64,000 bases of DNA from an uncultured Gammaproteobacteria bacterium (lineage in GTDB: Bacteria; Patescibacteriota; Microgenomatia; Levybacterales; UBA12049), in assembly GCA_964512695.1 (NCBI GenBank), contig CAZEJU010000005.1, forward strand, positions 5,668 to 69,667, written 5' to 3'. Numbering within the stretch: the first letter of the stretch is position 1; the number at the start of each line of letters is the position of its first letter. A model generated the notes under the pieces. It ran no database searches. It was not told the origin of the DNA and was given only the letters and a program-made list of their open reading frames with translations. Position numbers and translations under genes: made by a program. Below, piece after piece: positions 24,284 to 38,145 of the stretch.

Positions 24284-25258
24284 TCAGGAAAGATACTTTT
24301 TCTTCATTGTAAATGCATAATATCCAACACCTATTAAGGAAATGCCCGCAACCATTAATGAGAGTGGCCAACCTAGTGTTCCGCTGAAATATTCTCCTGT
24401 TATTTTTAAAATATAGAGCATAAGAAAAATTGTCCCCCAAGTTAAGAAAGCTTTACTCTTCAACTTCACACTTAACAATAAAATAGAAAAAACGATTAGG
24501 GGGAATGCCAGCTCCCAAAAAATATTTTGCGAAGGTTGCCATCCGCCTAAAACTAAAGCCGCACCAAGGAAGAAAAGAGTTCCGAAGCTATAAAGCGGCT
24601 CTGTAAGCGCTTTTTGCTCTGTAAAGGAAAAATAATATCCTAAAAATAAGTAAGATAAACCAACAAAAAGAAATCGGTATTCATGAAATTTCATATTTGT
24701 GAAATAAGGATTCGGACCAATAAGAAAGTTGGTAAAGTTAAAAAAGAACCATGTAGCATACATGATGCTAAATAAGGTAAAAATAGTTTTTTTAAATACA
24801 AAAAATGAAATAAGATACATAATAAAAACTATACCCGTAATAAGACTCTGCATGAAAGGATACCCTGGATCAAAACCCGCTTGGTCAAACGCAATATTTA
24901 AGCCAAGAGGAATAACAAGCGCGGCAATGAGATGAAATGCTAATCCGACTGCTCCATATTTTTCTTCTTTATTAAAAAGTACCCCTACTATGTATGAGGC
25001 AATGCCAAATCCTAAGGTCACAAGTATTTTCGTAAAAGCGTTTAATGAATTCCAATTCTGAAATACAAGTATCGCTATCCCTATAAAAACGATAAATCCT
25101 CCTATAAAATACAATACTTCTGAAATACCTACTTCTCGAGTTAATGATCCTACTTTTTTATCTTTTCCTCTTTCGTATGCCGAAACCACTTCATCTTTCG
25201 TTAGAAGATTTTGTGAAGACATTGTTGTAATTGTTGATAAAATTGATTCTTTATCCAT
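24284..25258 (-). CDS. Hypothetical polytopic membrane protein (about 8 TM helices) with a short soluble N-terminal region
   Basis: 324-aa ORF dominated by hydrophobic helices. Confidence 0.5.
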   Translation of the reverse strand: MDKESILSTITTMSSQNLLTKDEVVSAYERGKDKKVGSLTREVGISEVLYFIGGFIVFIGIAILVFQNWNSLNAFTKILVTLGFGIASYIVGVLFNKEEKYGAVGLAFHLIAALVIPLGLNIAFDQAGFDPGYPFMQSLITGIVFIMYLISFFVFKKTIFTLFSIMYATWFFFNFTNFLIGPNPYFTNMKFHEYRFLFVGLSYLFLGYYFSFTEQKALTEPLYSFGTLFFLGAALVLGGWQPSQNIFWELAFPLIVFSILLLSVKLKSKAFLTWGTIFLMLYILKITGEYFSGTLGWPLSLMVAGISLIGVGYYAFTMKKKYLS

Positions 25259-25259
25259 A

Positions 25260-25766
25260 TTAGTCTACTACCCACCCTAAAAATGAAAAACCGTTTGAAT
25301 AAGTTGACCCATCGTTCTCTAAATCTACTTTTTTACTACTATACTTTCCAACAAGGTACTTACTATCATAGTTATTATCATACCAAAAAAAAGGAAAGAA
25401 ACCTCTGTGTACACTCCCATTTTCTATAGTATATCCGTCAGGAGACTTCCTATTATTATTTAATACGAGTCGTGAAGCATCTTCATAAGAGATAGCCATA
25501 CTATTATTTGTTTTTACATTATAGATATATAGTTGAGGTTCGGTATACGTTTCATATGGATAGTATGTCTCAGTATAATCTCGTTGATACTTTTGCAAAC
25601 GATTATTTCTTACTAAGTAAAAATACTCACGTCCCGAACTGTAAAGAAAATTATAACGAGGTTTATGAAAAAAGTTTGGAATATATATCGCAATAACTAT
25701 AAAAAGGATCATAAATAGAGGTATCGAGAAACCAAAAATAAGAGGAAGATTTTTTTTATTAAACAT
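25260..25766 (-). CDS. Hypothetical N-terminally anchored Tyr/Asn-rich protein
   Basis: 168-aa ORF with an N-terminal TM helix. It is adjacent to and co-directional with the 24284..25258 ORF. Confidence 0.4.
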   Translation of the reverse strand: MFNKKNLPLIFGFSIPLFMILFIVIAIYIPNFFHKPRYNFLYSSGREYFYLVRNNRLQKYQRDYTETYYPYETYTEPQLYIYNVKTNNSMAISYEDASRLVLNNNRKSPDGYTIENGSVHRGFFPFFWYDNNYDSKYLVGKYSSKKVDLENDGSTYSNGFSFLGWVVD

Positions 25767-25878
25767 ATATTTAATCGTTAGTAAGTAATGTACTTTATCC
25801 TATATCTAAAAATTAATCAGCAAATTATCTATCATTGTGCTATCAAATAGATAGCCATATAAACTTAATGTTTATATA

Positions 25879-26967
25879 TCAGTCTTTTCCTATGGTAATA
25901 ACGATATCAAACTCAGCTGACTGAGTGGCTTCCTCTACTATTATAAGTGGAAAGTCACTTCTTAGCACATTCTGAATATCCTTAACTAATTCAGAAGAAA
26001 ACTGTTCGGAGTATGTGAGGGTTGTTTGATTTTCTAAAGCTCGTGCGTTGCCAATCGATATATTTTTATAACCACTAGCATTTAGAATTAAACCCATTTC
26101 TCCCGCCTGACCTTTAATACCAGAACCATTAAGTATCTGAATTTTAATCGCAGACTTATCGGGGGATTTTATGGTAGGACTTAGCAGAACAGTGGGTGAA
26201 AGTGTAAGAGTCACGTCAGATGTGGTTAAAGAAAGTTGTGGAGCATGATCTTGATCTTTAGCGAATGGATTCGTGACTAAATTACGCTGTATCAATGCGT
26301 AAATGGAAACTGCGACTAGTATTACCAAACCAATGACCAATGTAACATACTGATATTTTAAATTAGGCTTTGGAGTCTGTATGTTTAACTCTGATTCAAT
26401 ACCATCTGCTTCTTCTTTTGAAATCTTTTCAGCTTTTAAAAGATTGTATTTGTTTAGTACACTGCCGTTCTTCAGAATTCCTTTCGCATCAGTTACAGAA
26501 ATGCTTGAAACTTCTCTATTTGTTATTATGCTTAATGGTACAACTGCGCTAACACCAATATTTTTCACTTTCAAAGTTTCTATAACTACTTTGTAAAGAT
26601 CGCTATTTGCGGCTAAAAGTTCAATTTTTTTACCTTTTTTTACCGTTAATTTTGCTATTTTTGCTCTATTTATAGGAATGTATTGGTAAAAGCGTTTCTC
26701 ATTTTCTCCTTTTTTTTCAGAATCCTCTATCTCTTCTGAAAAAACAAACTGGTTGGAAAGAACAATAACAGCTTTTCCTTTAAGCTGGCTATTACTTATT
26801 ACCTCATTCAAACCCTGAGTAAAAAGTTTTTCATCTGAAAGTTCTCCATAGGTAACAGCGCCAGGAGGAAAAGTATACACGATAGTTTTCCCGGAAGGAG
26901 GTATAATCTGAAGAAGAGTCGTACTGATAAACACCAGGAATTTACCCTCTGGAAGGACCATATACAC
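25879..26967 (-). CDS. Bitopic membrane protein with a C-terminal LytR_C-like domain; architecture is cytoplasmic N-domain, then TM, then extracytoplasmic LytR_C
   Basis: TM helix (YVTLVIGLVILVAVSIYALI). C-terminal KIQILNGSGIKGQAGEMGLILNASGYKNISIGNA...TTLTYSEQF resembles the LytR cell-envelope-related C-terminal domain. Confidence 0.45.
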   Translation of the reverse strand: MYMVLPEGKFLVFISTTLLQIIPPSGKTIVYTFPPGAVTYGELSDEKLFTQGLNEVISNSQLKGKAVIVLSNQFVFSEEIEDSEKKGENEKRFYQYIPINRAKIAKLTVKKGKKIELLAANSDLYKVVIETLKVKNIGVSAVVPLSIITNREVSSISVTDAKGILKNGSVLNKYNLLKAEKISKEEADGIESELNIQTPKPNLKYQYVTLVIGLVILVAVSIYALIQRNLVTNPFAKDQDHAPQLSLTTSDVTLTLSPTVLLSPTIKSPDKSAIKIQILNGSGIKGQAGEMGLILNASGYKNISIGNARALENQTTLTYSEQFSSELVKDIQNVLRSDFPLIIVEEATQSAEFDIVITIGKD

Positions 26968-27000
26968 TAGTGTAGCAAATTTGAAAAATCATCGCGAGAT

Positions 27001-27504
27001 TTATCTTGAAGCAGATATTGTAGTTGAGCCTTCAGCTCTGCAAGCCGTTACAGTTACTATATTATTTGCATCAACAACAATCCCGTATCCTGTTGAGGTC
27101 GAACTCGACGACAGGCTTGGGTCGACAGGAATTGTTTTTAAGTATTTAACGAGCGGAGTCGCAAGATTTGTGCAGCTTGAAGCTGTGACACTGCATCCTC
27201 CTGTTGAAATTGCACATCCCGATGAAGCTGATCCAAGCTGGACTTGTGACATTCCGGTAGAAAGCCCCGACGGAAGAGAACCACCGTTATCTACTATATA
27301 AGCATGGACCGCAGTAAGGATCGTATTTACATCTGAGGTGCGTCGTGCGTTTCTCGCGTCTTGAAATCTTTGCGCTGGATTAAGTGCTACGAATACTACT
27401 ACGGCCAAAGTTGCTATAATAACTATTACGATTAAAAGTTCAATAAGAGTAAAACCTTCTTTGGAATTTTGGAGTTTGAATTTAAAATTTAAATATTTCT
27501 TCAT
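27001..27504 (-). CDS. Type IV pilin (class III signal peptide, probable major pilin)
   Basis: MKKYLNFKFKLQNSKEG|FTLIELLIVIVIIATLAVV is a prepilin cleavage/methylation motif (G-F-T-L-I-E). Start moved to the internal Met so the leader is 17 aa. The C-terminal region is Cys-containing. Confidence 0.75.
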   Translation of the reverse strand: MKKYLNFKFKLQNSKEGFTLIELLIVIVIIATLAVVVFVALNPAQRFQDARNARRTSDVNTILTAVHAYIVDNGGSLPSGLSTGMSQVQLGSASSGCAISTGGCSVTASSCTNLATPLVKYLKTIPVDPSLSSSSTSTGYGIVVDANNIVTVTACRAEGSTTISASR

Positions 27505-27560
27505 AGGCAGAATATTATATAAAGTTATCGTATCGTGTAGTGCATAAAAAATCAAGTAAT

Positions 27561-27944
27561 TTATATCTCTTTCCAACTTGAGATCGTCAAATAAGATCCT
27601 CCTCTGTTTACTACAGCCTGGACTGTTCTTCTGTAATCTGTCGCGGTAGTTGTGGTAGTAACTGTGTAATTAGATCCTGCTTGAGACACGGTTATGGTAC
27701 ATATTCCTTCAGGTCGAGATATTGTTCCACCTGCATAAGACGCGCTATTTCTAAGCTTTAAAAGCGCGTCTTCCATACACCCTTCTATAAAAACCAAAGC
27801 ACCTTCGCCTTTCGTAATCGCTAGTGAAACTTGTCCTTCACCTACACCAAGCTGAGCAACGGTTATCATAACACCCGAAATGACGACAGTTAATATGAGG
27901 ATAATTGATATCGCTACATATCCTTGTTCAGATTTTTTTTTCAT
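27561..27944 (-). CDS. PilX-like minor pilin (hydrophobic N-terminus without the canonical GFxxxE)
   Basis: 127 aa starting MKKKSEQGYVAISIILILTVVISGVMITVA, lying inside the prepilin gene cluster. Confidence 0.45.
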   Translation of the reverse strand: MKKKSEQGYVAISIILILTVVISGVMITVAQLGVGEGQVSLAITKGEGALVFIEGCMEDALLKLRNSASYAGGTISRPEGICTITVSQAGSNYTVTTTTTATDYRRTVQAVVNRGGSYLTISSWKEI

Positions 27945-27945
27945 A

Positions 27946-28494
27946 TTAATTACCCCTTAATTCAGCACTACTCTCAATAACCACTGAATCCTGATACTCC
28001 TGACGTGCAGCCACAAAAGAGGCTGCTACTGTCATTACAAACTGTATGTGTTTCGATTTATTGTCAACTGAGCTATAGTTTGTAAATGTTAGAAGTGTAA
28101 TAACAGTATTACTAGAGTTAATAGCTACTGCACTACCGACACCTTGTTTAATTCTTATATTCCCTCCTGATAAATCAATTACAGTCGGATTCGTCCCAGG
28201 CGTTGAAGTTGCAAGGGAAAGAGATGTTGCAGAAACAGAATTTATACCCGTAGCATTCCTAATCTCATATTTGATTCGTTCAGTAATATACCGTGCGTTC
28301 GCATTTACCTCTTGAGCAGTCGCACTTTTTACGCCTAATTCAACACTGTTCCAGGCAAAAGGAACAAGTGCAGATAAAATAATTGTTATTAAAGCAATGT
28401 ACAGAATAAGCTCGATTAAGGTAAAACCACGTTCATGTGAACTGAATGTGATAAAACCATTATTATTTTGTGAAATTATATGTAGACTTCGCAT
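27946..28494 (-). CDS. Prepilin-type minor pilin (PilW/pseudopilin-like)
   Basis: ERGFTLIELILYIALITIILSAL N-terminal methylation motif. Confidence 0.7.
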   Translation of the reverse strand: MRSLHIISQNNNGFITFSSHERGFTLIELILYIALITIILSALVPFAWNSVELGVKSATAQEVNANARYITERIKYEIRNATGINSVSATSLSLATSTPGTNPTVIDLSGGNIRIKQGVGSAVAINSSNTVITLLTFTNYSSVDNKSKHIQFVMTVAASFVAARQEYQDSVVIESSAELRGN

Positions 28495-28495
28495 A

Positions 28496-30004
28496 TTATT
28501 GTGGCTTAAGTATTAAAAACTCGGACGAACTATTTGTATCAGCGATAAATATACGATCATTGCTCGTATCATATACAACTTCTTTTGGAAAATTTACAAT
28601 ATTTAGTGATCCCAATGCCGGCAAACCTGGTAATGAATCTAGATTACTGCCATTGATAACTAAAAAATCATTTGTTGCCGAATTAGTTCCTAGAAAAAGT
28701 AGATTATTCCCAAAACTTATAGAGTTTACATCTGCTCCAATTTCAACAGTTGATTTAAGCAAAAGACTTGTTGGTGTGGAAACATCAATTGAGTAAAGTT
28801 CTGGCGCTCCGCTGGAAACTCTTCCCACCAAAATTCTATTCCCTCCGGCATTATAAATCGCAATCGCGTTTGCAGGATTGTTTCCGCTATCAAGATTAAA
28901 AATAGCATCACGCGCAAGCGTTGTAAGATTTATTACTTGTACTTCAGCAGCATTATCATCAGATGTAACAAACGCATAACTTCCTACAATAACTACCCCA
29001 GTAGGAGTTCCCGTTATTCCAGAACCAGTCCCGGTAATTGTGGGAGAAGCCGGATTTGAAATATTAAACTTAATAAACTCATTACCTCCATTCCTTACCA
29101 TATATAAAAAGTTTCCGGAAATCGCCAGAGCAATAGCATCAGCGTTATCATTACCACTGTTAACGACCGTTAAATTTACGGAATTCAACGTTGCAGTTGA
29201 AAGGCTTGTTGGAGAGCTAATATCTATAATCTGCAACTCCTGAGAGTTATTAGTTGATGCAATATATGCGTAATTACCATTAATAACAATATCATTTACG
29301 TCACCTCCAAGTTCGCGTTGGCAGTTTACACACATAGAGGGAACAGTAGTATTTGATACATCAATTGAAAAAAATTCAGTACCAACTGAACTAGCACGAC
29401 CTAAAAAAATATAGTTACCAGATCTTACAAGAGATATTCCATTAGCAGCATTTGCACCGCTATTTGCTAGTGTTAAATCGAAGCTCGAATCAAGAGATGG
29501 ACTTGCCCAATTTCCCACAATTGCCTTTCTCCAATCCGATAAATAACTTGAGAGGACAACAGAATTAGATCTTGTAGATGTAAAGTTCCAAGAAACTGTT
29601 GATGTAATTTTCTTAGTCAGAGGGTCAACAGTACCCCCACTTGTCACAATATTTCCGTTTCCATCCCTTGAAACATCAGATACTGTTATGACTCTCGTAT
29701 ACTTACTACTTAGAATATTATTGCTTCCTGAAAAACTCCAGACATTTCCCACTCTGGAAATACCTGTCCCAGGACTGTTTACCAAACTCGCAAAATTCTG
29801 GTTTTTAATTGAACGGGTTGCCTCAATACCTTCAGATGCATACTGTGTAGCTATGGTTTGCTCTTCTCCAAGCCTATTTGAGTCTAATCCTTGCAGCATA
29901 ACCATGACTGCACCAGATGCTAATATCATAAACAAAGCAGTAGCTATAATAACTTCAATAACCGAAAATCCCTTTTGGTGACACTCTTCAAAATATAATT
30001 TCAT
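28496..30004 (-). CDS. Large prepilin-headed protein with about 6 beta-propeller-type (LVIVD-like) repeats; candidate pilus tip adhesin (PilV/PilY1-like function)
   Basis: QKGFSVIEVIIATALFMILASGAVMV prepilin N-terminus, then repeated ~45-aa units (..ASTNNSQELQIIDIS.., ..RASSVGTEFFSIDVS.., ..RVSSGAPELYSIDVS.., ..TNSATNDFLVINGS.., ..DTNSSSEFLILKP). Confidence 0.6.
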   Translation of the reverse strand: MKLYFEECHQKGFSVIEVIIATALFMILASGAVMVMLQGLDSNRLGEEQTIATQYASEGIEATRSIKNQNFASLVNSPGTGISRVGNVWSFSGSNNILSSKYTRVITVSDVSRDGNGNIVTSGGTVDPLTKKITSTVSWNFTSTRSNSVVLSSYLSDWRKAIVGNWASPSLDSSFDLTLANSGANAANGISLVRSGNYIFLGRASSVGTEFFSIDVSNTTVPSMCVNCQRELGGDVNDIVINGNYAYIASTNNSQELQIIDISSPTSLSTATLNSVNLTVVNSGNDNADAIALAISGNFLYMVRNGGNEFIKFNISNPASPTITGTGSGITGTPTGVVIVGSYAFVTSDDNAAEVQVINLTTLARDAIFNLDSGNNPANAIAIYNAGGNRILVGRVSSGAPELYSIDVSTPTSLLLKSTVEIGADVNSISFGNNLLFLGTNSATNDFLVINGSNLDSLPGLPALGSLNIVNFPKEVVYDTSNDRIFIADTNSSSEFLILKPQ

Positions 30005-30438
30005 CTGCTAACTACTCCTTGAGAATTAATCACAAATTGTTTTGAGGTATCGTTACTAGTAATAGAGTATGTGCCTGTAGTGCTGGGTAAACCAGTAACT
30101 TTTGTAAAAACAACTTCAGTAAAGCCTGCAATAGATATATTGGAGTTGACCCTGAATGTTTCATCAAAAGCTGCATTGCGTGTAGCATACGAATTTCCTT
30201 GAAAAAGAGTTAAGGTATTTGATCCAAAACGCACTCCCCAATTACCGTTTTGCCTACCCATCATCGCATAGATTTGAGCTTTTCTCGCTTCTCCTAAGAA
30301 TTGATCCTGTACATTGGCTACAGCGTTTTGCGTCAAGAAACGGGAAAAGAAAACTACTGAGAATGTGCCAATAGAAATTATTATCGCGATAACTAAGAGT
30401 AATTCAATAATGGTAAAACCAGCAGCTTTTCTGTACAT
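30001..30438 (-). CDS. Prepilin-type minor pilin (GspH/FimT-like)
   Basis: MYRKAAGFTIIELLLVIAIIISIG motif. Start moved to the internal Met to remove the 68-nt overlap with pilC. Confidence 0.65.
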   Translation of the reverse strand: MYRKAAGFTIIELLLVIAIIISIGTFSVVFFSRFLTQNAVANVQDQFLGEARKAQIYAMMGRQNGNWGVRFGSNTLTLFQGNSYATRNAAFDETFRVNSNISIAGFTEVVFTKVTGLPSTTGTYSITSNDTSKQFVINSQGVVSR

Positions 30439-30448
30439 ATCATGACAC

Positions 30449-31534
30449 TTAGCGCTTGATACTACTACTAAACTGATAAATCGGTCCAATAATGGAAACT
30501 GCAATAAAGGCAACAATCAACCCTACTATTATTAATATTACTGGCTCAAGAATTGTTGAAAGATTCTTGGAAGTACTATCAACTTCATCTTCAAAATAAT
30601 CCCCTAAGTAACTGAATGTCTCGTCAAGTTTACCCGTTTTTTCTCCAACGCCCAGCATCCTGACTGCAATAAGCGGAAAAAAATTAAATTTTGAATGATC
30701 AAAAATGCTCTCAAGTGTTTTGCCTCTCTCTACCCCTTTTTGAATCCTGTCTATATATTCCCTGAAGATCATATTTTGCGTGGATTCTTTTTGAATTTCC
30801 AGTGCGCGTGTAATTGGGATTGAACTTTGAAGCAAAGTACCCATATTCCTGCAGATTGACGCAAGCTGTACATTTTGTATAAACGAACCAATTACAGGAA
30901 GGCTTAGCAAAAATCTATGCCATAAAGGTTTTGCAAATTTTTGGGAGATAGTTACTTTAAACGCGATCACACAAATACCTAAAAATGCGAAGATATAAAT
31001 CCCATAATTGTTCATTACGTTTGCAAACCAAAGAAGAATTCTTGTTGTTATCGGAAGCTCTACATCCAGGGAATTAAATAGGTCAACTAACTTTGGTAAA
31101 ACAAAAATACTCAAACCAATTGCGGCTGTAAACGCGACTAAAAGCACAATAGTTGGATAGAGTAATGCGCTCTTAATTTTTTGCGAGAACTCATGGGTCT
31201 TTCTTAAATGTGTTGCAAGGTAATCCAGATTCTTCTCAAGGTTTCCTGATTGTTCCCCGACTTTTATAAGCTGCACATAAAATGGATCAAAAAATTTTGG
31301 ATAAAAAGATAATGCCTTATCAAACTCTTGCCCATTTACAACTTCTTCGCGGATTTTATGCAAAACCTTTCTGAAATATACATTATTGTTCTGCCTAGAA
31401 ACTATTTCGATTGATTCAGCCAGGGGTATTCCACTTTTAAGCATAATGGAAAGGTGCTTCGTAAACGTCAGTCTTTCAACCGCACTGACACCTCCAAAGA
31501 TTACTATGTTATCAGACATCTTAGGCAGTTTCAT
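30449..31534 (-). CDS. pilC: Type IV pilus inner-membrane platform protein PilC (GspF family)
   Basis: Two T2SS_F repeats, 3 TM helices and the typical length of 361 aa. Adjacent to pilB. Confidence 0.85.
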   Translation of the reverse strand: MKLPKMSDNIVIFGGVSAVERLTFTKHLSIMLKSGIPLAESIEIVSRQNNNVYFRKVLHKIREEVVNGQEFDKALSFYPKFFDPFYVQLIKVGEQSGNLEKNLDYLATHLRKTHEFSQKIKSALLYPTIVLLVAFTAAIGLSIFVLPKLVDLFNSLDVELPITTRILLWFANVMNNYGIYIFAFLGICVIAFKVTISQKFAKPLWHRFLLSLPVIGSFIQNVQLASICRNMGTLLQSSIPITRALEIQKESTQNMIFREYIDRIQKGVERGKTLESIFDHSKFNFFPLIAVRMLGVGEKTGKLDETFSYLGDYFEDEVDSTSKNLSTILEPVILIIVGLIVAFIAVSIIGPIYQFSSSIKR

Positions 31535-31605
31535 ATTTGAATTTAAAATTTGGACTGTTGAATACAGAATTTAATTATTAAAATCTATACTTCAGATTCT
31601 AGAGT

Positions 31606-33300
31606 CTACTCGCGCGTTGCACGTAATACTTCTTCAATAGTTGTTATTCCTTCAGCTATTTTTTCCAGACCGTCTTCGGCCATTTTTCTCATTCCTTCTT
31701 TTATCGCCATCTGTTCAATTGTGTCAGAATCTGCTTTTTGGACAATTAAAGCTCTGATTGCCTCATTCATTTCTAGAACTTCAAAGATACCTATTCTTCC
31801 CATGTACCCACTCATGTGGCAAACAGAACATCCTTTTCCTTTATATATCCTTATTGATGATTTACTTCCGTAAATTTTTCTGATCAAGTCACGGCTAAAA
31901 TCTTTTAGAAGTTCCGACAGCTCGATGTCTAGAGAATATTTACACTTCTCACAAATTTTACGAACCAAACGTTGCGCGATTACAACATTTATTGTCGATG
32001 CGACTAAAAACGGTTCTACTCCCATGTCAATAAACCTTGGAACCGCTGTCGCCGCGTCATTTGTATGCAGTGTAGAAAGGACAATATGTCCTGTTAAAGC
32101 AGAATTAATTGCAATGTCCGCAGTCTCATCATCTCTGATTTCACCAATATATATGATATTCGGGTCTTGCCTCAAAATTGAGCGCAATCCTTCCGCAAAT
32201 GTTAAATTAGTTTTTGCATTAACTTGAATCTGGTTTATACCCTCCACGTCATACTCAACGGGATCTTCAATTGTCGCGATATTTTTGTCAGGTGTGTTTA
32301 AAATTTTAAGAATTGCATACATAGTAGTTGTTTTACCGCTTCCAGTTGGCCCCGTGGACAATATCATACCGTACGGTTTATTCATGGCGTTAACCACTTT
32401 CTCATGGTCTTCTTTGCTCATTCCCAGATTAGATAAACTAAACTGCCTGAAATGTGAAGCTAAAAGCCTTAAAACAGCTTTCTCCCCATGAACTACCGGC
32501 ACCATTGAGACACGGATATCCAAATCTTCTTCAGGAAGTTGAACCTGTATCTTTCCATCCTGTGCTGAGGCATGCTCATCAGTTTGTAATGAAGCTAAAA
32601 CCTTAATCCTTAGAACCACCTGCTTATATACCTCCAAAGATAAGGTCAAAACTTCGTGCATAATCCCGTCAATCCTAAACCTTACCTGCGCGTTATCTTT
32701 TGCAGGCTCTATATGAATGTCAGACGCGTTATTCCTATATGCGTATTCGATAAGTAAATCCACTATTTTTATAATCGGTGCTTCATAGATTTTACCGTCT
32801 CCTAAAATATCAACTTGTTCAGCTAAAAGCGCATCGAATTTTTTTTGCAGATCTTTTTTATAGATTTTTAGCGATTGCTCAATATCACGCCGTATAGCAA
32901 AATATGGAATTACTTTTTTATTCACTTTGCGTTGGATAAATTCAAGCAATTTGAGGTTCGAGGTGTTCGCAAGTGCAATTTTAACATTATCTGGATTGTC
33001 TTGAAAAACGATAGCACTAAACTCTTTCGCGAGTTGCTCGGGTATTATATACGAGGCGCTATCAGGAATAGAAACAGTCTGAAGATTAATATACGGAACA
33101 TTAATCATATCTGCAATGATTCTGCCAAGCCCAACAGAATCTATTAAATCATGGTCGATAAGTGCTTCAGCAAACGATACATTTTCCTTCTCACATTCTG
33201 TAAATGTTTTGATCAGTTCTTTTTCTTCAATAACTTTCAGTTCTTTTAAAGAGTTCAATAAATCCTTGGCGAATGGTTCCATACTTTTTAATCGTATCAA
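31606..33300 (-). CDS. pilB: Type IV pilus assembly ATPase PilB (GspE family)
   Basis: N-terminal GSPII_E_N-like region, Walker A LSTGPTGSGKTTT, Asp box and His box, and a tetracysteine motif CEKCK...CSVCH. Confidence 0.9.
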   Translation of the reverse strand: MIRLKSMEPFAKDLLNSLKELKVIEEKELIKTFTECEKENVSFAEALIDHDLIDSVGLGRIIADMINVPYINLQTVSIPDSASYIIPEQLAKEFSAIVFQDNPDNVKIALANTSNLKLLEFIQRKVNKKVIPYFAIRRDIEQSLKIYKKDLQKKFDALLAEQVDILGDGKIYEAPIIKIVDLLIEYAYRNNASDIHIEPAKDNAQVRFRIDGIMHEVLTLSLEVYKQVVLRIKVLASLQTDEHASAQDGKIQVQLPEEDLDIRVSMVPVVHGEKAVLRLLASHFRQFSLSNLGMSKEDHEKVVNAMNKPYGMILSTGPTGSGKTTTMYAILKILNTPDKNIATIEDPVEYDVEGINQIQVNAKTNLTFAEGLRSILRQDPNIIYIGEIRDDETADIAINSALTGHIVLSTLHTNDAATAVPRFIDMGVEPFLVASTINVVIAQRLVRKICEKCKYSLDIELSELLKDFSRDLIRKIYGSKSSIRIYKGKGCSVCHMSGYMGRIGIFEVLEMNEAIRALIVQKADSDTIEQMAIKEGMRKMAEDGLEKIAEGITTIEEVLRATRE

Positions 33301-33407
33301 AACATAAATCCTCAGACAAGAAAGACATAGTAAGTGTCTCTAGATCAATATTCATTTTTGCGGTGCTATAAGAAAGTTTGCAGCTGAATTTTTCTAGTAA
33401 AGGAGAA

Positions 33408-33716
33408 TTAAGTACCAATCACGGTATTAATCTTTGTAATTACATCATTGATTGATAGGTCTGATTTTATTATATAATCACGCGCTCCTAATTTCATTCC
33501 ACGATCAATATCTTCTTTTTGCCCTAAATTTGAAGCAATAATAACAGGAATCCTTTTCCAGTCCGGATTATTTTGAATTTCTTCTAAAACCGTAAACCCG
33601 TCTTTTTTAGGCATCATAAGATCCAGTAACATAACATCTGGGACAAATGTTTTGAGCGTATCAATTGCCTCCTGGCCGTCTGCTACTAATGTAACATCAA
33701 ACCCTTCCTTTGCCAT
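33408..33716 (-). CDS. CheY-like receiver domain protein lacking a canonical AUG-initiated N-terminus (see findings)
   Basis: Receiver motifs are present (VMLLDLMMPKKDG; conserved K in ASNLG). In-frame codons upstream of the ATG encode PIIKNITAEDDKFLANAYRVK, i.e. the missing beta1-DD segment, with no ATG/GTG/TTG before the upstream stop. Confidence 0.6.
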   Translation of the reverse strand: MAKEGFDVTLVADGQEAIDTLKTFVPDVMLLDLMMPKKDGFTVLEEIQNNPDWKRIPVIIASNLGQKEDIDRGMKLGARDYIIKSDLSINDVITKINTVIGT

Positions 33717-33927
33717 TTTTACGCGATATGCATTAGCGAGGAATTTATCATCTTCAGCTGTTATATTTTTTATAATTGGCTAAAAGCTTTATCGGATGAT
33801 GCAATTTTTACTTCCTAAACCTGATGTACTTCTTATGGAAAATATAGACATCGGTTTTCTATCAGCTTTTTTCGCATTTCCATAAATTTATTCTTTCAAG
33901 TTTTACAGTCCTAACACTCTTAAAGTG

Positions 33928-34308
33928 TTATAAGTAGCTTTTAACCTCTTCTGCTATTGCTGACAAACTTGCATCTGATTTGACCAGAAAATCTATGGCT
34001 CCCATTTCTTTCGCCATTTTTTTATCTTCTTCTTGCGATAAATTCGAAGTGATAATTACTTTTGTGTTTATCCCTTTTTCACGAATAACTGATAGTACCT
34101 CCCAACCATCAATACCAGGCATCATGATATCTAAAAGGACTAAGGAATAAGTCCCTGATTGCAATTCCTTTAATCCTTCCTCACCGCTGAAGACCACGTG
34201 AGCAGTAATGCCCCCTTTTTGAAGCTTTATCTCCATCGCTTTTCCCATTGCTTTTTCGTCCTCAATAATAAGAACTTTTTTTGTATTGTTACTATTTACA
34301 CTTTCCAA
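33928..34308 (-). CDS. Single-domain response regulator (CheY-like receiver)
   Basis: KKVLIIEDEKAMGKA..., LVLLDIMMPGIDGWEV, conserved K (SNLSQ..K). 126 aa. Confidence 0.8.
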   Translation of the reverse strand: MESVNSNNTKKVLIIEDEKAMGKAMEIKLQKGGITAHVVFSGEEGLKELQSGTYSLVLLDIMMPGIDGWEVLSVIREKGINTKVIITSNLSQEEDKKMAKEMGAIDFLVKSDASLSAIAEEVKSYL

Positions 34309-34359
34309 ACTGTAATATTCACCCTCTTTCTTTTTATATTTTCTCTTCTGTTTGAGAAT

Positions 34360-34782
34360 TTAATAGAGCTGCACTTCTTTATCTTGCAAATCAAAAATCC
34401 CATTTAATTTTTCAACTATTTCTTCTAGGGAATTTTCTGATTTAACAAGATAATAAGACGGCTGGTCGGTTACTACATGAGTTAACCTTTCGTCATTTGT
34501 ATCAAAATTCGTAAGAATAACCACTGAAGCATATTTACCCCATTTATTCTCACGTAACTTATGTAACATAGTCAGACCATCCATTTTGGGCATTTCAATA
34601 TCCAGTAAAATTGCGTTCGGATGATTTTTTAATGCAGCATCCAGCCCAGTTGCTCCGTCCCCAGCTTCTAAAACTAAAAACCCTAAGCTTTCTAGTTTCA
34701 CGGCAATTGCTTGCCTAAGAGAGGCATCATCTTCAATGATAAGAATGGACTTACTCGTTTCCAAATTATTTTGATTTGCCAT
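34360..34782 (-). CDS. Single-domain response regulator (CheY-like receiver)
   Basis: KSILIIEDDASLRQA..., ILLDIEMPKMDGLTML. 140 aa. Confidence 0.8.
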   Translation of the reverse strand: MANQNNLETSKSILIIEDDASLRQAIAVKLESLGFLVLEAGDGATGLDAALKNHPNAILLDIEMPKMDGLTMLHKLRENKWGKYASVVILTNFDTNDERLTHVVTDQPSYYLVKSENSLEEIVEKLNGIFDLQDKEVQLY

Positions 34783-35170
34783 ATAAGCATTCTTTTAGAG
34801 CCTCAACTATTTGATCTAAGCGAAAATTCGCCTTAACAAAGTACTTATTCACCCCCAGCTGCATATACATTCTCACTTTTTCTTCGCTTGCCGTATTACT
34901 TACAACAAAAATTGGAATATGTTTCCATTTTGAATCAGAACTTTTGATTTTTGTAACCAAATCTAATCCGTCATCTTTACCTAACAAATAGTGGTCTAAC
35001 CAAATTCCATCCACCTGACTAAGTTCTTCCAAATAAGACATGGCTTGTTGTACACTTCTTGCGGTAGCCACATTAATATTGTTATTCTCAAGCTTTATCT
35101 TAATCACTTCTAACAATGGAATTTCATCCTCAATAACTAAAATCGTTTTTGTCTCCATAAAGATAGTCAC
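34766..35170 (-). CDS. Single-domain response regulator (CheY-like receiver)
   Basis: KTILVIEDEIPLLEV..., IWLDHYLLGKDDGLDLV. 134 aa, overlapping the next receiver gene by 17 nt. Confidence 0.75.
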   Translation of the reverse strand: MTIFMETKTILVIEDEIPLLEVIKIKLENNNINVATARSVQQAMSYLEELSQVDGIWLDHYLLGKDDGLDLVTKIKSSDSKWKHIPIFVVSNTASEEKVRMYMQLGVNKYFVKANFRLDQIVEALKECLYGKSK

Positions 35171-35179
35171 CTCCTTCCT

Positions 35180-37381
35180 TCATTTTAATCTTCTATTACC
35201 GTCTTTCTTCACCATTCCAGAAAGAGGCAATAACACAAAAAACGTTGTACCTTTATTTTCTTCCGAATAAAACCATATTTTACCTCGGCAATGATCTATC
35301 AATGATTTTACAAGATACAATCCTAACCCAGTTCCATCAGTATTTTGTACTCTGACATTATCTGCCCTAAAAAGTTTTTCGAAAACTTTTCCTTGTTGCA
35401 TGGTGGTTATTCCGATACCATTATCCTCAACTTCTATAAGAAGACTATTCTCTTCTGCTTTTACCCCACCAACTGCTTCTTCCTGCTGGATAGTTTTTAA
35501 AGAGATTTTTATTTCTCCGTTTTCATTGGTGTATTTGATTGAATTTGTAAGCAAGTTCTGGAGTATGATTGTAGTTAAGTTAGGATCAAGCATGATTTGG
35601 GGCATATCATCTTTCTCGAGGACTACTCTTAATTTTTTCTCATCTATCATAGGCTTTGACTCATCCAGGATAGAACGGGTTAATCTCACAATATCAACCA
35701 TTTCAGGTTCAATCATGTAATTGCCTGTTTCAATTCTCGACACATTCAGTAGTGCATTTACCAGCTTTGACAGGCGCTGACTTCCTTGATAGGCTTCCTG
35801 GATAAACTTTTTTTGCTCATCTGTTACATTACCTGCATCTCCAGATAAAAGAAGTTCACAATACCAATTGATAGTTGAGAGAGGCGTACGCAGCTGATGA
35901 GATGCTAAAGAGATAAATTCTGACTTAGCCCTGTCTATTTGCTTTTCTCTCGTAACATCATGCAGAACAGTAACCGTGCCCAATAGTTTATTCCTCAGTA
36001 GAATGGGAGTAATCGTAACTAATACCGCAATCTTTTCTCCATTTTTTTTGGTATAGATCACTGCACTGCTGATCTTCTCTTTACGGGATAGCACTTTATT
36101 TATAATTCTTTCCGCAGGAGGTATGACTCTTCCATTTTCATCTTCCGCCTTAATAGCTTCAATTAATTTTCTCTCTACCAGATCCTGTGGGGTATATCCT
36201 AATAACTCTTCTATTGCTTGATTTATCCTCACAATTTGTCCCTTCTCATCTGTGACGATCAGTCCGTCCCCAATACTTGATATAAGAACTTCATCATATA
36301 TGCGTTCTTCCTCAAGATGGGTTATATCCTCTTCTGTCCCTATAAAGCCAATTATCCTATCTTCCTTTTTTATGGGTGAAATATGGGTAATCACGGTGTA
36401 ATATTCACCATTTTTTCGTCTATTCTGTAGCTCCCCATCAAATCCTTCACCTGCTCGTATTGTTTGCCATAGTTTTTGGTACAAGTCTTGAGTCATAATA
36501 CCACCCCATAAGCGAGGCGTATTATTTTTCATCTCCTCAAAACTAAAACCTGTCATTTGCTGAGCTTTTTTATTTGCAAAAACAACAAACCCGTTTACAT
36601 CAGTTATCACAACGTGATTGCGGGAGTCTTGAATTGCTTGCAACATAATATTCTTCTCTGTTTGTTCATTATTAAAATCAGATTCTGTTAAAATAGTATC
36701 ATTTATTCTTGGATAGTGTTCCTCAAAACGCATGTTCTGAAAAGGAGTATTTCTGCGGGCTAGAAGCACATATGTCTCATCAATAAACCCCTGCGGACCA
36801 CAAATAAAGAAAAGATCCTCCGCAAAATTGATTCCTGATGGAAAAAGTTCATTTGATATTTTTCCAATATGGTTTACAAATACGATATTTTGCTGTGCAG
36901 TTATCCTGGAAAGCTCTTCTGAGAAAGCGCTTTTTTCAGAAGCTGAGTTAACATACATAAGTGTTAAATTTGGATTCATCTCTTCCTGGAGAGAGTTAAT
37001 AATTGAAAGAAATGGTGCAATCCCGACTCCGCCTGCGATCATAACTATATTTTGTTTTTGATTTTTAAGTGAATAGGAACTCCCAAATGGACCGAGTATT
37101 TTTACCCTACTTTGAAGTGGAAGTTCTAAAAGCGTTTTTATATATCCTGAATCTGAATTGCGAAAAAGAATAGAGCAGGATTTTTTATTCAAAGAACTGG
37201 AGATAATAGAGAAAGCTCTTCTCCCTCCTTTTAGATCCGGGTATAAAAGCTCGGACACAATTACCCAGACATATTGACCGGGAGAAAAACTAAAATCTTG
37301 TTCAAAGAAGAAGGTAATGACTGTCGTGTCTTTTGCAACTGTTTTCTTTTCCTGAATTGTCGCCCACATTTCATTACTCAT
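35180..37381 (-). CDS. Hybrid sensor histidine kinase: N-terminal ferredoxin-NADP-reductase-like FAD/NAD(P)-binding oxidoreductase module, then 2 PAS domains, HisKA and HATPase_c
   Basis: FNR-family motifs RRAFSIISS (RxYS FAD site), MIAGGVGIAPFLSII (GGxGxxP NAD site) and FFICGPQGF. Two PAS-like segments. H-box ASHQLRTPLSTI, N-box LLTNSIKYT, G1 VEDNGIGI, G2 GTGLGLYLVKSL. Confidence 0.8.
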   Translation of the reverse strand: MSNEMWATIQEKKTVAKDTTVITFFFEQDFSFSPGQYVWVIVSELLYPDLKGGRRAFSIISSSLNKKSCSILFRNSDSGYIKTLLELPLQSRVKILGPFGSSYSLKNQKQNIVMIAGGVGIAPFLSIINSLQEEMNPNLTLMYVNSASEKSAFSEELSRITAQQNIVFVNHIGKISNELFPSGINFAEDLFFICGPQGFIDETYVLLARRNTPFQNMRFEEHYPRINDTILTESDFNNEQTEKNIMLQAIQDSRNHVVITDVNGFVVFANKKAQQMTGFSFEEMKNNTPRLWGGIMTQDLYQKLWQTIRAGEGFDGELQNRRKNGEYYTVITHISPIKKEDRIIGFIGTEEDITHLEEERIYDEVLISSIGDGLIVTDEKGQIVRINQAIEELLGYTPQDLVERKLIEAIKAEDENGRVIPPAERIINKVLSRKEKISSAVIYTKKNGEKIAVLVTITPILLRNKLLGTVTVLHDVTREKQIDRAKSEFISLASHQLRTPLSTINWYCELLLSGDAGNVTDEQKKFIQEAYQGSQRLSKLVNALLNVSRIETGNYMIEPEMVDIVRLTRSILDESKPMIDEKKLRVVLEKDDMPQIMLDPNLTTIILQNLLTNSIKYTNENGEIKISLKTIQQEEAVGGVKAEENSLLIEVEDNGIGITTMQQGKVFEKLFRADNVRVQNTDGTGLGLYLVKSLIDHCRGKIWFYSEENKGTTFFVLLPLSGMVKKDGNRRLK

Positions 37382-37436
37382 AAGAAATAACGTGGACTTC
37401 AGGAGTCTCTTATAATAGTAGTATATACTAATTCAA

Positions 37437-37967
37437 TTACTTTGTTACATGATTTTCTGATACTTCATCGAGTGTTTCCATACCAATAAAAAATTCTACT
37501 TCTCCTTTAACATCAAGTATGGGAGAAATCCTGAGTAGAACAGGATAAAGCCGTCCATTTTTGTGTTTGTTGGTTACTTTTACCATGATAGCTTTCTTTT
37601 GCACTGCAATTTGATCCCACATCTCTTGATAGAATTCTCTTGTCATTTGGTTACCCCACAAGGCTGGAGTCTTCCCGAGTATCTCATGTGAAGAGTAACC
37701 GGTCGCAGCAACTACCTGTTCGTTTACATATAAAATAACACCATTTTTATCAGTTATAATAACTTGTCGTTCAATATCTTTTGAAATTGAGTTTATAAGT
37801 CCACAGCGCTCGCATTTTATATCAAATAACTGGAGCATGATCTGTTCTATGACAAGCAATTTGTTACATTTTGTACATCTATGTTTCTTCAGTAACTGTG
37901 TCTTAGCAACTTCAAGAGGAAATGAAACTGGTAAAAGACCTTGAGTACTACCTCGGTTATTGTTCAT
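37437..37967 (-). CDS. Zinc-ribbon (CxxC-x17-CxxC) + PAS domain protein
   Basis: CTKCNKLLV...CERCG followed by a PAS fold (ITDKNGVILYVNEQVVAATGYSSHEILGK...). 176 aa, immediately upstream of and co-directional with the sensor kinase. Confidence 0.55.
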   Translation of the reverse strand: MNNNRGSTQGLLPVSFPLEVAKTQLLKKHRCTKCNKLLVIEQIMLQLFDIKCERCGLINSISKDIERQVIITDKNGVILYVNEQVVAATGYSSHEILGKTPALWGNQMTREFYQEMWDQIAVQKKAIMVKVTNKHKNGRLYPVLLRISPILDVKGEVEFFIGMETLDEVSENHVTK

Positions 37968-38145
37968 ATTGTACTTAAAGGTATTCTACCAAAAAACTCG
38001 TAGGTATTGCAGCGTTTGCCTTAGAGTTACTGAATCCATCTCTTCTATATTTTTGAGCTTTGCCTATATACCTTCTTTTCACGATAGTTGATCAATTAGT
38101 AACAAGTATTATTCAATTCCCAAAAAAAGAGTTTAAATTATTATA

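Follow-up and report, generated by a model that had tools for sequence, protein, structure and literature searches.

Gene organization at the locus

A sensor histidine kinase gene lies near the middle of the window (the whole stretch of 64,000 nt analysed here) as one unbroken reading frame, in which an FNR module is followed by two PAS domains and a HisKA/HATPase kinase core (Table 1). The preliminary description of this DNA had proposed such an N-terminal ferredoxin-NADP-reductase-like module, and the HMMER/Pfam search that it called for recovered FAD_binding_6, NAD_binding_1, two PAS stretches, HisKA and HATPase_c. All the motifs that it had listed were found in the 733-aa ORF at mapped positions, and the two features on which its reading depended, an FNR-like fold at the N-terminus and the presence of the FAD/NAD residues, were both observed. 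A sequence scan found no transmembrane segment in the kinase. An assembly or frameshift artefact was ruled out as the source of the fusion, given the continuous ORF and the recurrence of the fusion at 14 independent genome loci and in 86 representative clusters.

The upstream gene encodes a paralogue of PAS1 joined to a Zn-ribbon; the same gene lies upstream in locus L006 (1e-75), and further Zn-ribbon+PAS relatives exist. The four single-domain REC genes downstream all retain the phospho-acceptor residues, with the acidic pocket, D59 and K113 invariant, and REC genes come after the kinase in most related loci; the four RECs are likely the phosphoryl acceptors of the kinase. Type IV pilus genes follow, and we observed the same pilus neighbourhood in L002, L005, L006, L010, L018, L025 and L039. 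By tblastx synteny, the close relative L092 lacks at this site the block in which all the signalling and pilus genes lie, and the kinase, REC and pilus genes behave together as a single 13.9 kb unit. Neither an Rfam nor a tRNA scan gave any match in the 64,000-nt window, and promoter and terminator scans gave nothing above shuffled sequence.

Table 1. Features of the kinase gene and its neighbourhood (positions in the window)
Feature	Residues	Position	Strand	Motifs	Evidence
Sensor histidine kinase, predicted soluble, FNR-PAS1-PAS2-HisKA-HATPase	733 aa	35180..37381	-		ORF, domains
FNR, flavin-binding beta-barrel half	1-102	37076..37381	-	R55-A-F57-S58; S78-G-Y-I-K-T	FAD_binding_6, model strands E4-99, conservation
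FNR, NAD(P)H-binding Rossmann half	108-224	36710..37060	-	A116-G-G-V-G-I-A-P-F124; C194-G-P; C-terminal F219-E-E-H-Y223
FNR-PAS1 linker, low model confidence	225-247	36641..36709	-		pLDDT 63-72; family median gap 23 aa
PAS1, flavin-type	248-354	36320..36640	-	T288-P-R290-L-W-G-G; W305; N320-R-R-K; E350
PAS2, kinase-proximal as in WalK/VicK/PhoR/PnpS	364-480	35942..36292	-		PAS_9 aa 372-477; PnpS/WalK NCBIfam; VicK 4i5s
HisKA dimerisation/phospho-acceptor domain	485-553	35723..35929	-	H495 in SHQLRTPL
HATPase_c catalytic domain	602-721	35219..35578	-	N, G1, G2 boxes
Upstream gene, Zn-ribbon + PAS1-type PAS protein, PAS1 paralogue	176 aa	37437..37967	-	TPALWGN...NKHKNG	Pfam, NCBIfam
Four single-domain REC genes, directly downstream		33408..35170	-		Pfam Response_reg
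REC gene		34766-35170	-
REC gene		34360-34782	-
REC gene		33928-34308	-
REC gene		33408-33716/33764	-
Type IV pilus genes, downstream of RECs		27001..33300	-		Pfam
PilB-type ATPase		31606-33300	-
PilC		30449-31534	-
Pilin-like genes, incl. LVIVD-repeat protein		28496-30004 (LVIVD-repeat protein)	-	N-terminal methylation motif
Block (~13.9 kb) with whole signalling + pilus cluster		24263..38124	.		Missing at this site in L092 (tblastx synteny)

The FNR module is intact in its key FAD and NAD(P) motifs

The order of the two N-terminal halves, a beta-barrel flavin domain and then a Rossmann-type NAD(P)H domain, is that of the FNR superfamily. FAD_binding_6 matched aa 8-102 with 23.8 bits (gathering threshold 21.1), and NAD_binding_1 matched aa 114-170 with 33.2 bits (threshold 22), the latter match being confined to model positions 1-61 of 109; the alignment with the T4moF PDB entry reached aa 221, beyond the NAD_binding_1 match. 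The stretches RRAFSIISS, MIAGGVGIAPF and FFICGPQGF were located at aa 54-62 (nt 37196-37222), aa 114-124 and aa 191-199, respectively. The first holds the R-x-Y/F-S/T flavin motif as R55-A-F57-S58, where the clade has Arg in 154/156, Phe in 145/156 and Ser in 155/156 sequences, and the second holds G-G-x-G-x-x-P as G117-G-V-G-I-A-P123, with G118 in 156/156, G120 in 148/156 and P123 in 135/156. The CGP motif, also noted before, is present in the window protein and its Gly (G195) is conserved in 153 of 154 sequences, but its Cys varies across the clade (S 55, C 33 and A 27 among 155). In place of G-K-x-S, the FNR motif at a helix N-terminus for the flavin phosphate, the clade carries S78-G-Y-K-K-T, with S78 in 149/156 and with Lys in 144/156 relatives where the window protein has I81. 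Given that S78 is conserved and that helix 79-86 begins there, the phosphate-site geometry may match that of a G-x-x-S/T motif. A C-terminal flavin-stacking aromatic is found in F219-E-E-H222-Y223, for which the clade shows E220 in 137/153, Phe or Tyr at 222 in 100/151 and Tyr at 223 in 103/151 sequences. The module contains two Cys only, and no Fe-S or haem domain was found in cis.

These data indicate that, as judged from motifs and conservation, the module is an intact flavin/NAD(P)H oxidoreductase; its main residues for FAD and NAD(P) are present, and strong purifying selection acts on them throughout the clade of 156 sequences. The variable CGP Cys, the I81 of the window protein where the clade has Lys, and a FAD_binding_6 score barely over the Pfam threshold might instead point to a degenerate, cofactor-free scaffold that serves structure or dimerisation. 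We consider such a scaffold very improbable, because the flavin and NAD(P)H contact residues form the most conserved columns in 156 diverged sequences, a pattern unexpected for a dead domain.

The kinase core is canonical and PAS1 resembles flavin-binding redox PAS domains

The two PAS domains and the canonical kinase core of the preliminary description were borne out by Pfam and structure matches. HisKA (1.4e-16) and HATPase_c (4.5e-25) were matched in Pfam and HK853 among structures (1e-37), and the protein has the features of a HisKA-class kinase, with the H-box SHQLRTPL at aa 494-501 (nt 35879-35902, in agreement with the earlier placement near nt 35898), the N-box LLTNSIKYT at aa 610-618, the G1 box EDNGIGI at aa 652-658 and the G2 box GTGLGL at aa 683-688. 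The NCBIfam PnpS and WalK models matched aa 354-720, the part that is like the core of WalK/VicK/PhoR/PnpS also by the VicK and HK853 structures, while the input end is wholly different. The scores are far under the equivalog cut-offs (PnpS 246.5 vs 400, WalK 223 vs 725, PhoR 192 vs 334), indicating that the kinase is not an orthologue of PnpS, WalK or PhoR.

In a single-sequence search with PAS1, the top matches were MmoS, Aer (two entries) and NifL; with the family profile, MmoS (3e-32) and NifL (5e-22) were recovered, and among the matches listed all seem to be flavin PAS domains. We used as comparison group the FAD-binding PAS domains (NifL/MmoS/Aer/AerC) of clusters 4, 9 and 14, for which Trp and Asn are determinants; each cluster needs just two of three residues, and these are Trp and Asn in the NifL-type cluster 4 (PMC10468136). 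W305 aligns with Aer W70 (PMC9668731), the helix F-alpha Trp that stacks on the adenine and is the primary determinant of FAD binding, N320 of the NRRKNG stretch corresponds to Aer N85, the Asn bonding flavin N3/O4, and both residues are invariant in the clade (109/109), as is R290 (109/109). Two other positions depart from the group: Pro289 (107/109) replaces the flavin-stacking His (Aer H53, MmoS H132), and Glu350 (104/108) replaces the Arg above flavin N5 (Aer R115, MmoS R195), an Arg that is not universal in the group, since NifL has His there. Without the Aer/MmoS His and Arg, the flavin chemistry of PAS1, and even its ligand, could differ. Taken together, PAS1 is assigned by its residues to the NifL/MmoS/Aer flavin-PAS group, and flavin binding is predicted.

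FAD-type PAS domains outscored LOV domains in the PAS1 profile search, but LOV domains were still among the strong matches, and R290 and N320 fall at the positions of an Arg and an Asn of LOV domains. PAS1 might then be a Cys-less LOV-like photoreceptor working through flavin photoreduction, with the FNR resetting or biasing it. We regard this as extremely improbable: the adduct Cys of LOV (N-C-R-F-L-Q) is absent from PAS1 (T-P-R-L-W-G), where Pro stands in 107/109 sequences, the Trp that marks redox PAS domains of the FAD type is invariant, and many of the hosts are groundwater organisms.

The FNR-PAS1 pairing recurs across Patescibacteria

An exhaustive profile search gave more than 1,000 representative clusters (1,045 with E≤1e-30), so that the tiny family suggested by a word-index search (26 relatives) was misleading. 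We examined a sample of 155 representative clusters at 50% identity, in which PAS1 directly follows the FNR in 126 (81%) and a kinase continuation is present in at least 86 (55%). The hosts are almost all Patescibacteria (CPR) genomes, and the family members bear generic database names only. A literature search, which reached few subscription journals, found no description of an FNR-PAS-kinase fusion. The fusion, earlier called uncommon, is so among characterised systems, but in sequence space it is a hallmark of a large Patescibacteria family. This recurrent, Patescibacteria-wide design and the identity of PAS1 as a flavin PAS are new beyond the preliminary description.

The linker between FNR and PAS1 has a median of 23 aa across the family, and 12 of 111 members carry an insert of more than 120 aa there, indicating that close covalent geometry is not needed. 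Moreover, FNR and PAS-kinase are separate adjacent, tightly spaced genes in L005, L014, L017 and L031, and an FNR-PAS1 protein lies beside a separate kinase gene in L001-4, L009, L016 and L023. In Yanofskybacteria the FNR is a separate polypeptide, a 231-aa protein found on 27 contigs, and the adjoining PAS1-kinase starts with a membrane-anchor-like segment; these two observations rule out a sequencing error of a fused gene as the cause of the split there, while such an error is possible for L005. Exclusive pairing of PAS1 with the FNR was ruled out by stand-alone PAS1-type proteins in unrelated contexts. The link is thus one-way, which fits the FNR as an accessory to a PAS sensor.

We also asked whether the FNR could be a working enzyme with a substrate of its own, such as free flavin (like Fre), iron, a quinone or O2, that the kinase regulates or accompanies; a kinase with a reductase of its own was one of the options named in the preliminary description. 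A special kinship to the flavin reductase Fre was unsupported, since Fre was an ordinary mid-rank match, no closer than many other FNR modules, and genes for a partner substrate were not found in the cluster. Further, the signal in histidine kinases normally flows from the N-terminal input to the C-terminal kinase, and the steady pairing with PAS1 (81%) indicates a signalling role. A free-standing enzymatic role is therefore improbable.

A putative two-flavin relay to the pilus

Redox-coupled signalling, suggested earlier, is consistent with all the evidence, and we infer as the best reading that the protein, a member of a family spread across Patescibacteria, would be a histidine kinase that senses redox state in the cytoplasm. 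Given that PAS1, missed as a flavin PAS in the preliminary description, falls in the NifL/MmoS/Aer group, the idea of the FNR as sensor becomes a specific two-flavin hypothesis. We propose, with a probability of roughly 0.45, that the FNR may transfer electrons from NAD(P)H to the flavin of PAS1, the redox state of which would set kinase output to the four RECs beside the pilus genes. The FNR would oxidise NAD(P)H and its own flavin would hand the electrons on to that of PAS1, within one chain in the window protein and between chains where the FNR is a separate protein. O2 or another oxidant would re-oxidise the PAS1 flavin, the redox state of which would report NAD(P)H supply versus oxidant. 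Reduction would protonate flavin N5, with Glu350 on strand I-beta, which takes the place of the switch Gln in LOV domains and of R115 in Aer, as the putative reader. The signal would travel via the helix after PAS1 and then PAS2 to switch His495 autophosphorylation, and the phosphoryl group would pass to the stand-alone RECs and, as the gene neighbourhood suggests, might alter type IV pilus activity by protein-protein contact and not by transcription.

Alternatively, the FNR itself might be the sensor, in that its flavin/NAD(P)(H) ligand or redox state changes its conformation and this change is passed allosterically via the PAS domains to the kinase; PAS1 would then be a mere transmitter or dimerisation module, or would sense a second, independent signal. 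The NAD(P)H and flavin motifs are intact and conserved, the N-terminal place is typical of input domains, and ThnY is a precedent for an FNR-family flavoprotein as a redox-dependent regulator (PMC4814904). However, a sensor of this kind leaves unexplained the tie of the FNR clade to one flavin-type PAS with an invariant pocket, as well as the separate Yanofskybacteria FNR beside a membrane-anchored PAS1-kinase, although a stable non-covalent complex could explain the latter. We consider it rather unlikely.

The AlphaFold2 model of the window protein had a pTM of 0.82, but that of P0007, an independent family member, reached 0.62 and its linker was disordered. The models did not reproduce a fixed interface between FNR and PAS1, and the interface was dropped as evidence because of the lower pTM of P0007.

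Aer, NifL and MmoS are the textbook flavin-PAS redox sensors, and their cellular flavin reductant is debated. A large natural family with an FNR fused or adjacent to a PAS of this type is a 'Rosetta stone' that makes the reductant question testable in a soluble protein. If the relay is true, it would be the first natural PAS redox sensor with its own reductase, and the fusion would reveal which kind of enzyme supplies such sensors with electrons, a question pending for Aer. Patescibacteria are uncultured, mostly fermentative and reliant on other cells, and their type IV pili are thought to serve attachment and DNA uptake. The relay would offer a first mechanistic handle on Patescibacteria signal transduction. 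More tentatively, family members might be self-contained two-flavin sensors, an FNR feeding a NifL/Aer-type PAS, that provide a principal NAD(P)H/O2-to-pilus coupling in respiration-lacking Patescibacteria. The module could also be put to use as a kinase switch that is genetically encoded and responds to NAD(P)H/O2.

Comparison with known systems

NifL PAS1 and MmoS PAS-A are FAD redox PAS domains of kinase-type sensors, but in the present family an FNR is fused or next door, Pro stands for the His of MmoS/Aer, and Glu stands for the residue near N5, which is Arg in MmoS and Aer and His in NifL. To our knowledge, neither NifL nor MmoS has a reductase domain, and both receive their electrons from other components of the cell; the NifL flavin was reportedly found by Macheroux et al. 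in 1998 to be reducible in vitro by NADH through FNR-family enzymes. ThnY of Sphingopyxis granuli is likewise an FNR-family flavoprotein turned redox switch in gene regulation (PMC4814904), but it carries [2Fe-2S], is not NAD(P)H-reduced, acts together with an activator of the LysR type and has no fused PAS or kinase domain; by Pfam, no plant-type [2Fe-2S] ferredoxin domain was found in the window protein. The Aer flavin has a potential of -290 mV, near NAD+/NADH, and its reductant is 'likely an NAD(P)H coupled system', for which Fre is discussed as a candidate (PMC9668731). Aer has a flavin PAS that reads cellular reducing power, and its output governs a motility apparatus, as is proposed for the window protein; Aer sits in the membrane and reaches CheA by way of HAMP, whereas the window protein is predicted to be soluble, with its own HisKA kinase and a candidate reductase on one polypeptide. 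Flavohaemoglobin, BenC and T4moF (benzoate/toluene oxygenase reductases), NqrF, cytochrome b5 reductase and SpNOX share the two-domain fold and the cofactor motifs of the FNR module, and in them the module delivers electrons from NAD(P)H to a redox centre that is either fused to it or part of a partner. The acceptors of such enzyme modules are haem or [2Fe-2S], whereas here the sole candidate in cis is the putative PAS-bound flavin of a signalling protein.

The FNR-like module and its predicted cofactor site

The kinase gene was found to be a single unbroken reading frame of 733 aa. The motifs named in the preliminary description all lay where it had placed them, including the H-box, put near nt 35898, and the two PAS segments and HisKA/HATPase that it had described behind the ferredoxin-NADP-reductase-like (FNR) module were borne out by a Pfam domain search. 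The kinase core resembles those of WalK, PhoR and PnpS but scores far under their equivalog cut-offs. No membrane segment was found in the 733-aa kinase, and it is therefore taken to be soluble.

Features of the kinase locus in the window and Pfam domains of the kinase
Feature	Position	Strand	Remarks
Block missing in L092	24263-38124		13.9 kb; versus L092 12742-13252
LVIVD protein gene	28496-30004	-	502 aa
Several pilin-like genes and LytR_C gene		-	
PilC	30449-31534	-	
PilB	31606-33300	-	
Four single-domain receiver (REC) genes	33408-35170	-	
Fourth REC gene	33408-33764	-	
Kinase gene	35180-37381	-	
H-box SHQLRTPL	nt 35879-35902	-	in kinase
Codon of Ile81	nt 37139-37141	-	in kinase
FAD_binding_6	aa 8-102		23.8 bits; gathering score 21.1
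NAD_binding_1	aa 114-170		33.2 bits; gathering score 22
Two PAS stretches	~aa 255-350 and 364-480		
HisKA	aa 485-553		
HATPase_c	aa 602-721		
Zn-ribbon-PAS gene	37437-37967	-	just upstream of kinase

The NAD_binding_1 match is partial, and truncation as its explanation was ruled out with phmmer: the toluene-4-monooxygenase reductase T4moF (4wqm, 3.7e-10) aligns with aa 16-221 of the kinase, the CGP strand and C-terminal F-E-x-aromatic included. An AlphaFold2 model of aa 1-365, built from a 15-sequence family alignment, had a mean pLDDT of 86, with values above 90 across most of aa 1-220. When this model was compared with the PDB by Foldseek, the top matches were FNR-family reductase modules only; among them were the flavohaemoglobin FAD/NAD module (4eh1, 9e-17), sulfhydrogenase gamma, Hmp, GcoB, T4moF, cytochrome b5 reductase, BenC, PDR and the SpNOX dehydrogenase domain (target TM 0.82). 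Pfam, the T4moF alignment and Foldseek thus agree on the FNR-like fold first proposed.

In an alignment of 156 members of the clade sharing this type of FNR module, the most conserved columns were the residues that define the superfamily cofactor sites: Q36 (156/156), R55 (154/156), F57 (145/156), S58 (155/156), P98 (153/156), G100 (155/156), G117 (146/156), G118 (156/156), G120 (148/156), P123 (135/156), G195 (153/154) and E220 (137/153), the last followed by an aromatic residue. The module at the N-terminus has the FNR fold, and its predicted cofactor site is intact, the key FAD/NAD(P) residues being present in the kinase, as claimed earlier, and conserved across the clade. The Cys of the CGP motif is present in the kinase and variable in the clade (Ser 55, Cys 33, Ala 27). 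Position 81, where in FNR-family enzymes the flavin-phosphate-binding helix begins, is Ile in the kinase, whereas 144/156 clade members carry Lys (S-G-Y-K-K-T); the neighbouring Lys82 may compensate. No Fe-S or haem partner domain for the FNR module was found by Pfam.

PAS1 as a flavin-type PAS domain

PAS1, the PAS domain that follows the FNR module, matched MmoS (9e-14), Aer (6.5e-13 and 6e-10) and NifL (8e-9) when searched alone, all ahead of LOV matches. With a 23-sequence family profile, MmoS (3e-32) and NifL (5e-22) were followed by LOV-derived flavoproteins and Aer (7e-16), and all matches listed were flavin PAS domains, judged by entry names. In Aer, FAD is contacted by N85 (N3/O4), W70 (adenine stacking), H53, R57 and R115, which lies above N5 (PMC9668731). 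A survey of PAS domains ranks the F-alpha Trp first among FAD determinants, with Asn and/or His as secondary residues, each cluster having at least two of the three (PMC10468136). Over 109 clusters, W305 and N320, aligned with Aer W70 and N85, were each invariant (109/109), as was R290 (109/109), aligned with the Arg of LOV 'NCRFLQ' and MmoS 'DHRIV', and the His position of Aer and MmoS was held by Pro289 (107/109). The Trp and Asn together correspond to the cluster-4 pattern of the survey (PMC10468136). The N5-proximal position carries Glu350 (104/108), where Aer and MmoS have Arg, NifL has His and LOV domains, by profile alignment, have their switch Gln. Judged from its sequence, PAS1 is a flavin-type PAS of the NifL/MmoS/Aer kind and a distinct subtype with an acidic residue beside the predicted N5 position; its flavin-type nature is an addition to the preliminary description. 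A LOV assignment was rejected because PAS1 lacks the adduct-forming Cys.

Size, architecture and hosts of the family

A word-indexed homology search returned 26 relatives, and an exhaustive profile search of 1.84 billion representatives gave 1,045 clusters at E≤1e-30, the best 150 of which were all below 1e-54. The fusion had been called uncommon: the FNR-PAS-kinase architecture was indeed not described in the literature searched (most subscription journals lay outside its coverage), but the family is large. Its sequences are already public under generic names ('PAS domain S-box protein', 'hypothetical protein', 'FAD-binding FR-type domain-containing protein') and each domain is well known by itself; the novelty lies in how they are combined and in the conservation of this combination throughout the family.

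Domain mapping on 155 representatives, with inspection of the best 150 profile matches, gave FNR-PAS-kinase in 52, FNR-PAS-PAS-kinase in 33, FNR-PAS-PAS-PAS-kinase in 1, FNR-PAS(-PAS) without kinase in 40 and FNR alone in 29. A PAS1-type domain directly followed FNR in 81% of the 155, and a kinase continuation was present in at least 55%, a lower bound because many representatives lie on short contigs. When one genome per species was scanned, 26 distinct clade loci were obtained, of which 14 were fully fused (L006-8, L010-13, L015, L019, L021, L024-26, L039), 4 were split into FNR and PAS1-kinase (L005, L014, L017, L031), 6 had FNR-PAS1 beside or near a separate kinase (L001-3, L004, L009, L016, L020, L023) and 2 were cut by contig ends. 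Nineteen of 23 genome-scan clade loci were deposited as Patescibacteria lineages (Woese-, Uhr-, Yanofsky-, Nomura-, Moranii-, Parcu- and Saccharibacteria, labels as deposited), and the remaining 4 bear automated labels on uncultured MAGs. The window also comes from a host of this kind: its SecA matches an NCBI entry exactly, and most named relatives of that SecA at ~70% identity belong to Levybacteria or Microgenomates. A more distant Patescibacteria subclade (L027-L036) has stand-alone FNR-like proteins of 226-230 aa without a kinase neighbour; L032, L033 and L036 also have, 1.3-3.9 kb downstream, a 502-aa ORF whose C-terminal region is FNR-like.

The linker between FNR and PAS1 had a median of 23 aa and was ≤45 aa in 98/111 representatives, and 12/111 had an insert of >120 aa without a Pfam match; in the fused proteins of L007, L011, L021 and L026 a ~200-aa insert occupies aa ~230-440. 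A fixed packing of FNR on PAS1 was not reproduced between AlphaFold2 models: the pTM was 0.82 for the window protein and 0.62 for the independent relative P0007, whose linker was disordered. In L005, a 243-aa FNR gene stops 2 nt before the PAS1-PAS-kinase gene, followed by REC, PilB and PilC in the gene order of the window. In two Yanofskybacteria loci the kinase downstream of FNR starts with a hydrophobic anchor-like segment, and the FNR, which recurs on 27 contigs, is a genuinely separate protein. The dependence of FNR on PAS1 runs one way: small proteins with a stand-alone PAS1-type domain were also found in unrelated settings, some of them bearing the Zn-ribbon of the Zn-ribbon-PAS protein. 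In relatives of ~400 aa (P0002, P0004, P0007, P0009, P0011), PAS1 is followed by a long terminal helix that carries the conserved motif …LNKLMVGRELKMIELK…, modelled in P0007 as a single 45-residue C-terminal helix; such members adjoin a separate kinase, as in L001-L003, which suggests docking to it through a coiled coil.

A proposed electron relay from FNR to PAS1

We propose that the FNR module would accept hydride from NAD(P)H and that electrons would go on, in cis or trans, to a PAS1 flavin re-oxidised by an oxidant such as O2. Glu350, on strand I-beta, would sense the redox and protonation state of the flavin, and the signal would run via the helix after PAS1 (H354-364 in the model) and PAS2 to the kinase. 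We put this reading somewhat short of even odds, at about 0.45. FNR modules usually pass electrons on to a redox centre, either fused or in a partner; the relay is proposed for this reason, and because the predicted PAS1 flavin is the only candidate centre in the kinase and the clade is tied to one PAS subtype. To our knowledge, Patescibacteria mostly lack respiratory chains and quinones, so the donors suggested for NifL and Aer would be out of their reach; a dedicated soluble reductase would then be a sensible solution. As the main rival, which we consider rather unlikely, the FNR module itself would be an allosteric NAD(P)H or redox sensor and PAS1 its transmitter; an independent enzymatic role, a dead scaffold and a light-sensing role jointly take up what remains. 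The relay is further proposed because, according to an independent study of Aer, the flavin of that receptor (-290 mV) is likely reduced by an NAD(P)H-coupled system, of unknown identity (PMC9668731).

We infer that the kinase works most like NifL, MmoS and Aer, which sense redox through a flavin-PAS domain, combining this with the electron-donor logic of flavohaemoglobin and oxygenase reductases. ThnY is an earlier example of an FNR-like regulatory protein, although it contains an Fe-S cluster, NAD(P)H does not reduce it and it forms no part of a kinase (PMC4814904).

Gene neighbourhood and the pilus cluster

The Zn-ribbon-PAS, kinase, REC, PilB, PilC, pilin-like and LytR_C genes follow one another on the minus strand with short gaps. 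The small Zn-ribbon-PAS protein joins a Com-like Zn-ribbon (CxxC...CxxC) to a PAS1-type domain (TPALWGN...NKHKNG) and might serve as a second client for the putative reductase. Its gene is kept upstream of the kinase in L006, and such proteins form their own family of ~150 aa (P0225-P0232, P0243-44), some of them in unrelated settings. The acidic pocket, phospho-acceptor Asp and conserved Lys are retained in all four RECs, provided that the fourth uses an upstream non-ATG start: no ATG, GTG or TTG covers its first beta-strand and acidic pocket, and the in-frame codons after an upstream TAG stop read P-I-I-K-N-I-T-A-E-D-D. This gene, 211 nt from REC3, is probably either read from an ATT or ATA start or in decay. 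No DNA-binding regulator was found among the genes of the kinase-REC-pilus cluster, and no tRNA genes or Rfam families at gathering score within the 64-kb window.

At most related loci, REC genes come after the kinase, and seven of these loci have PilB/PilC ≤6 kb away. From this neighbourhood, phosphorylated RECs would adjust the pilus machinery. The close relative L092 (GCA_041906785.1; SecA 85% identical) shares the gene order of either flank and has only a 147-aa PBP-family gene in place of the 13.9 kb block, which holds the Zn-ribbon-PAS, FNR-kinase, four REC, PilB, PilC, pilin-like, LytR_C and DUF2157 genes; since the whole block is missing, signalling and pilus genes are taken to come and go together, as a single unit. 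The 502-aa LVIVD protein, which has a pilin methylation motif at its N-terminus and LVIVD/beta-propeller repeats, is kept beside PilC in related loci (L001/L002/L005 equivalents); in the Patescibacteria pilus it may serve as a large minor pilin or as a tip adhesin.
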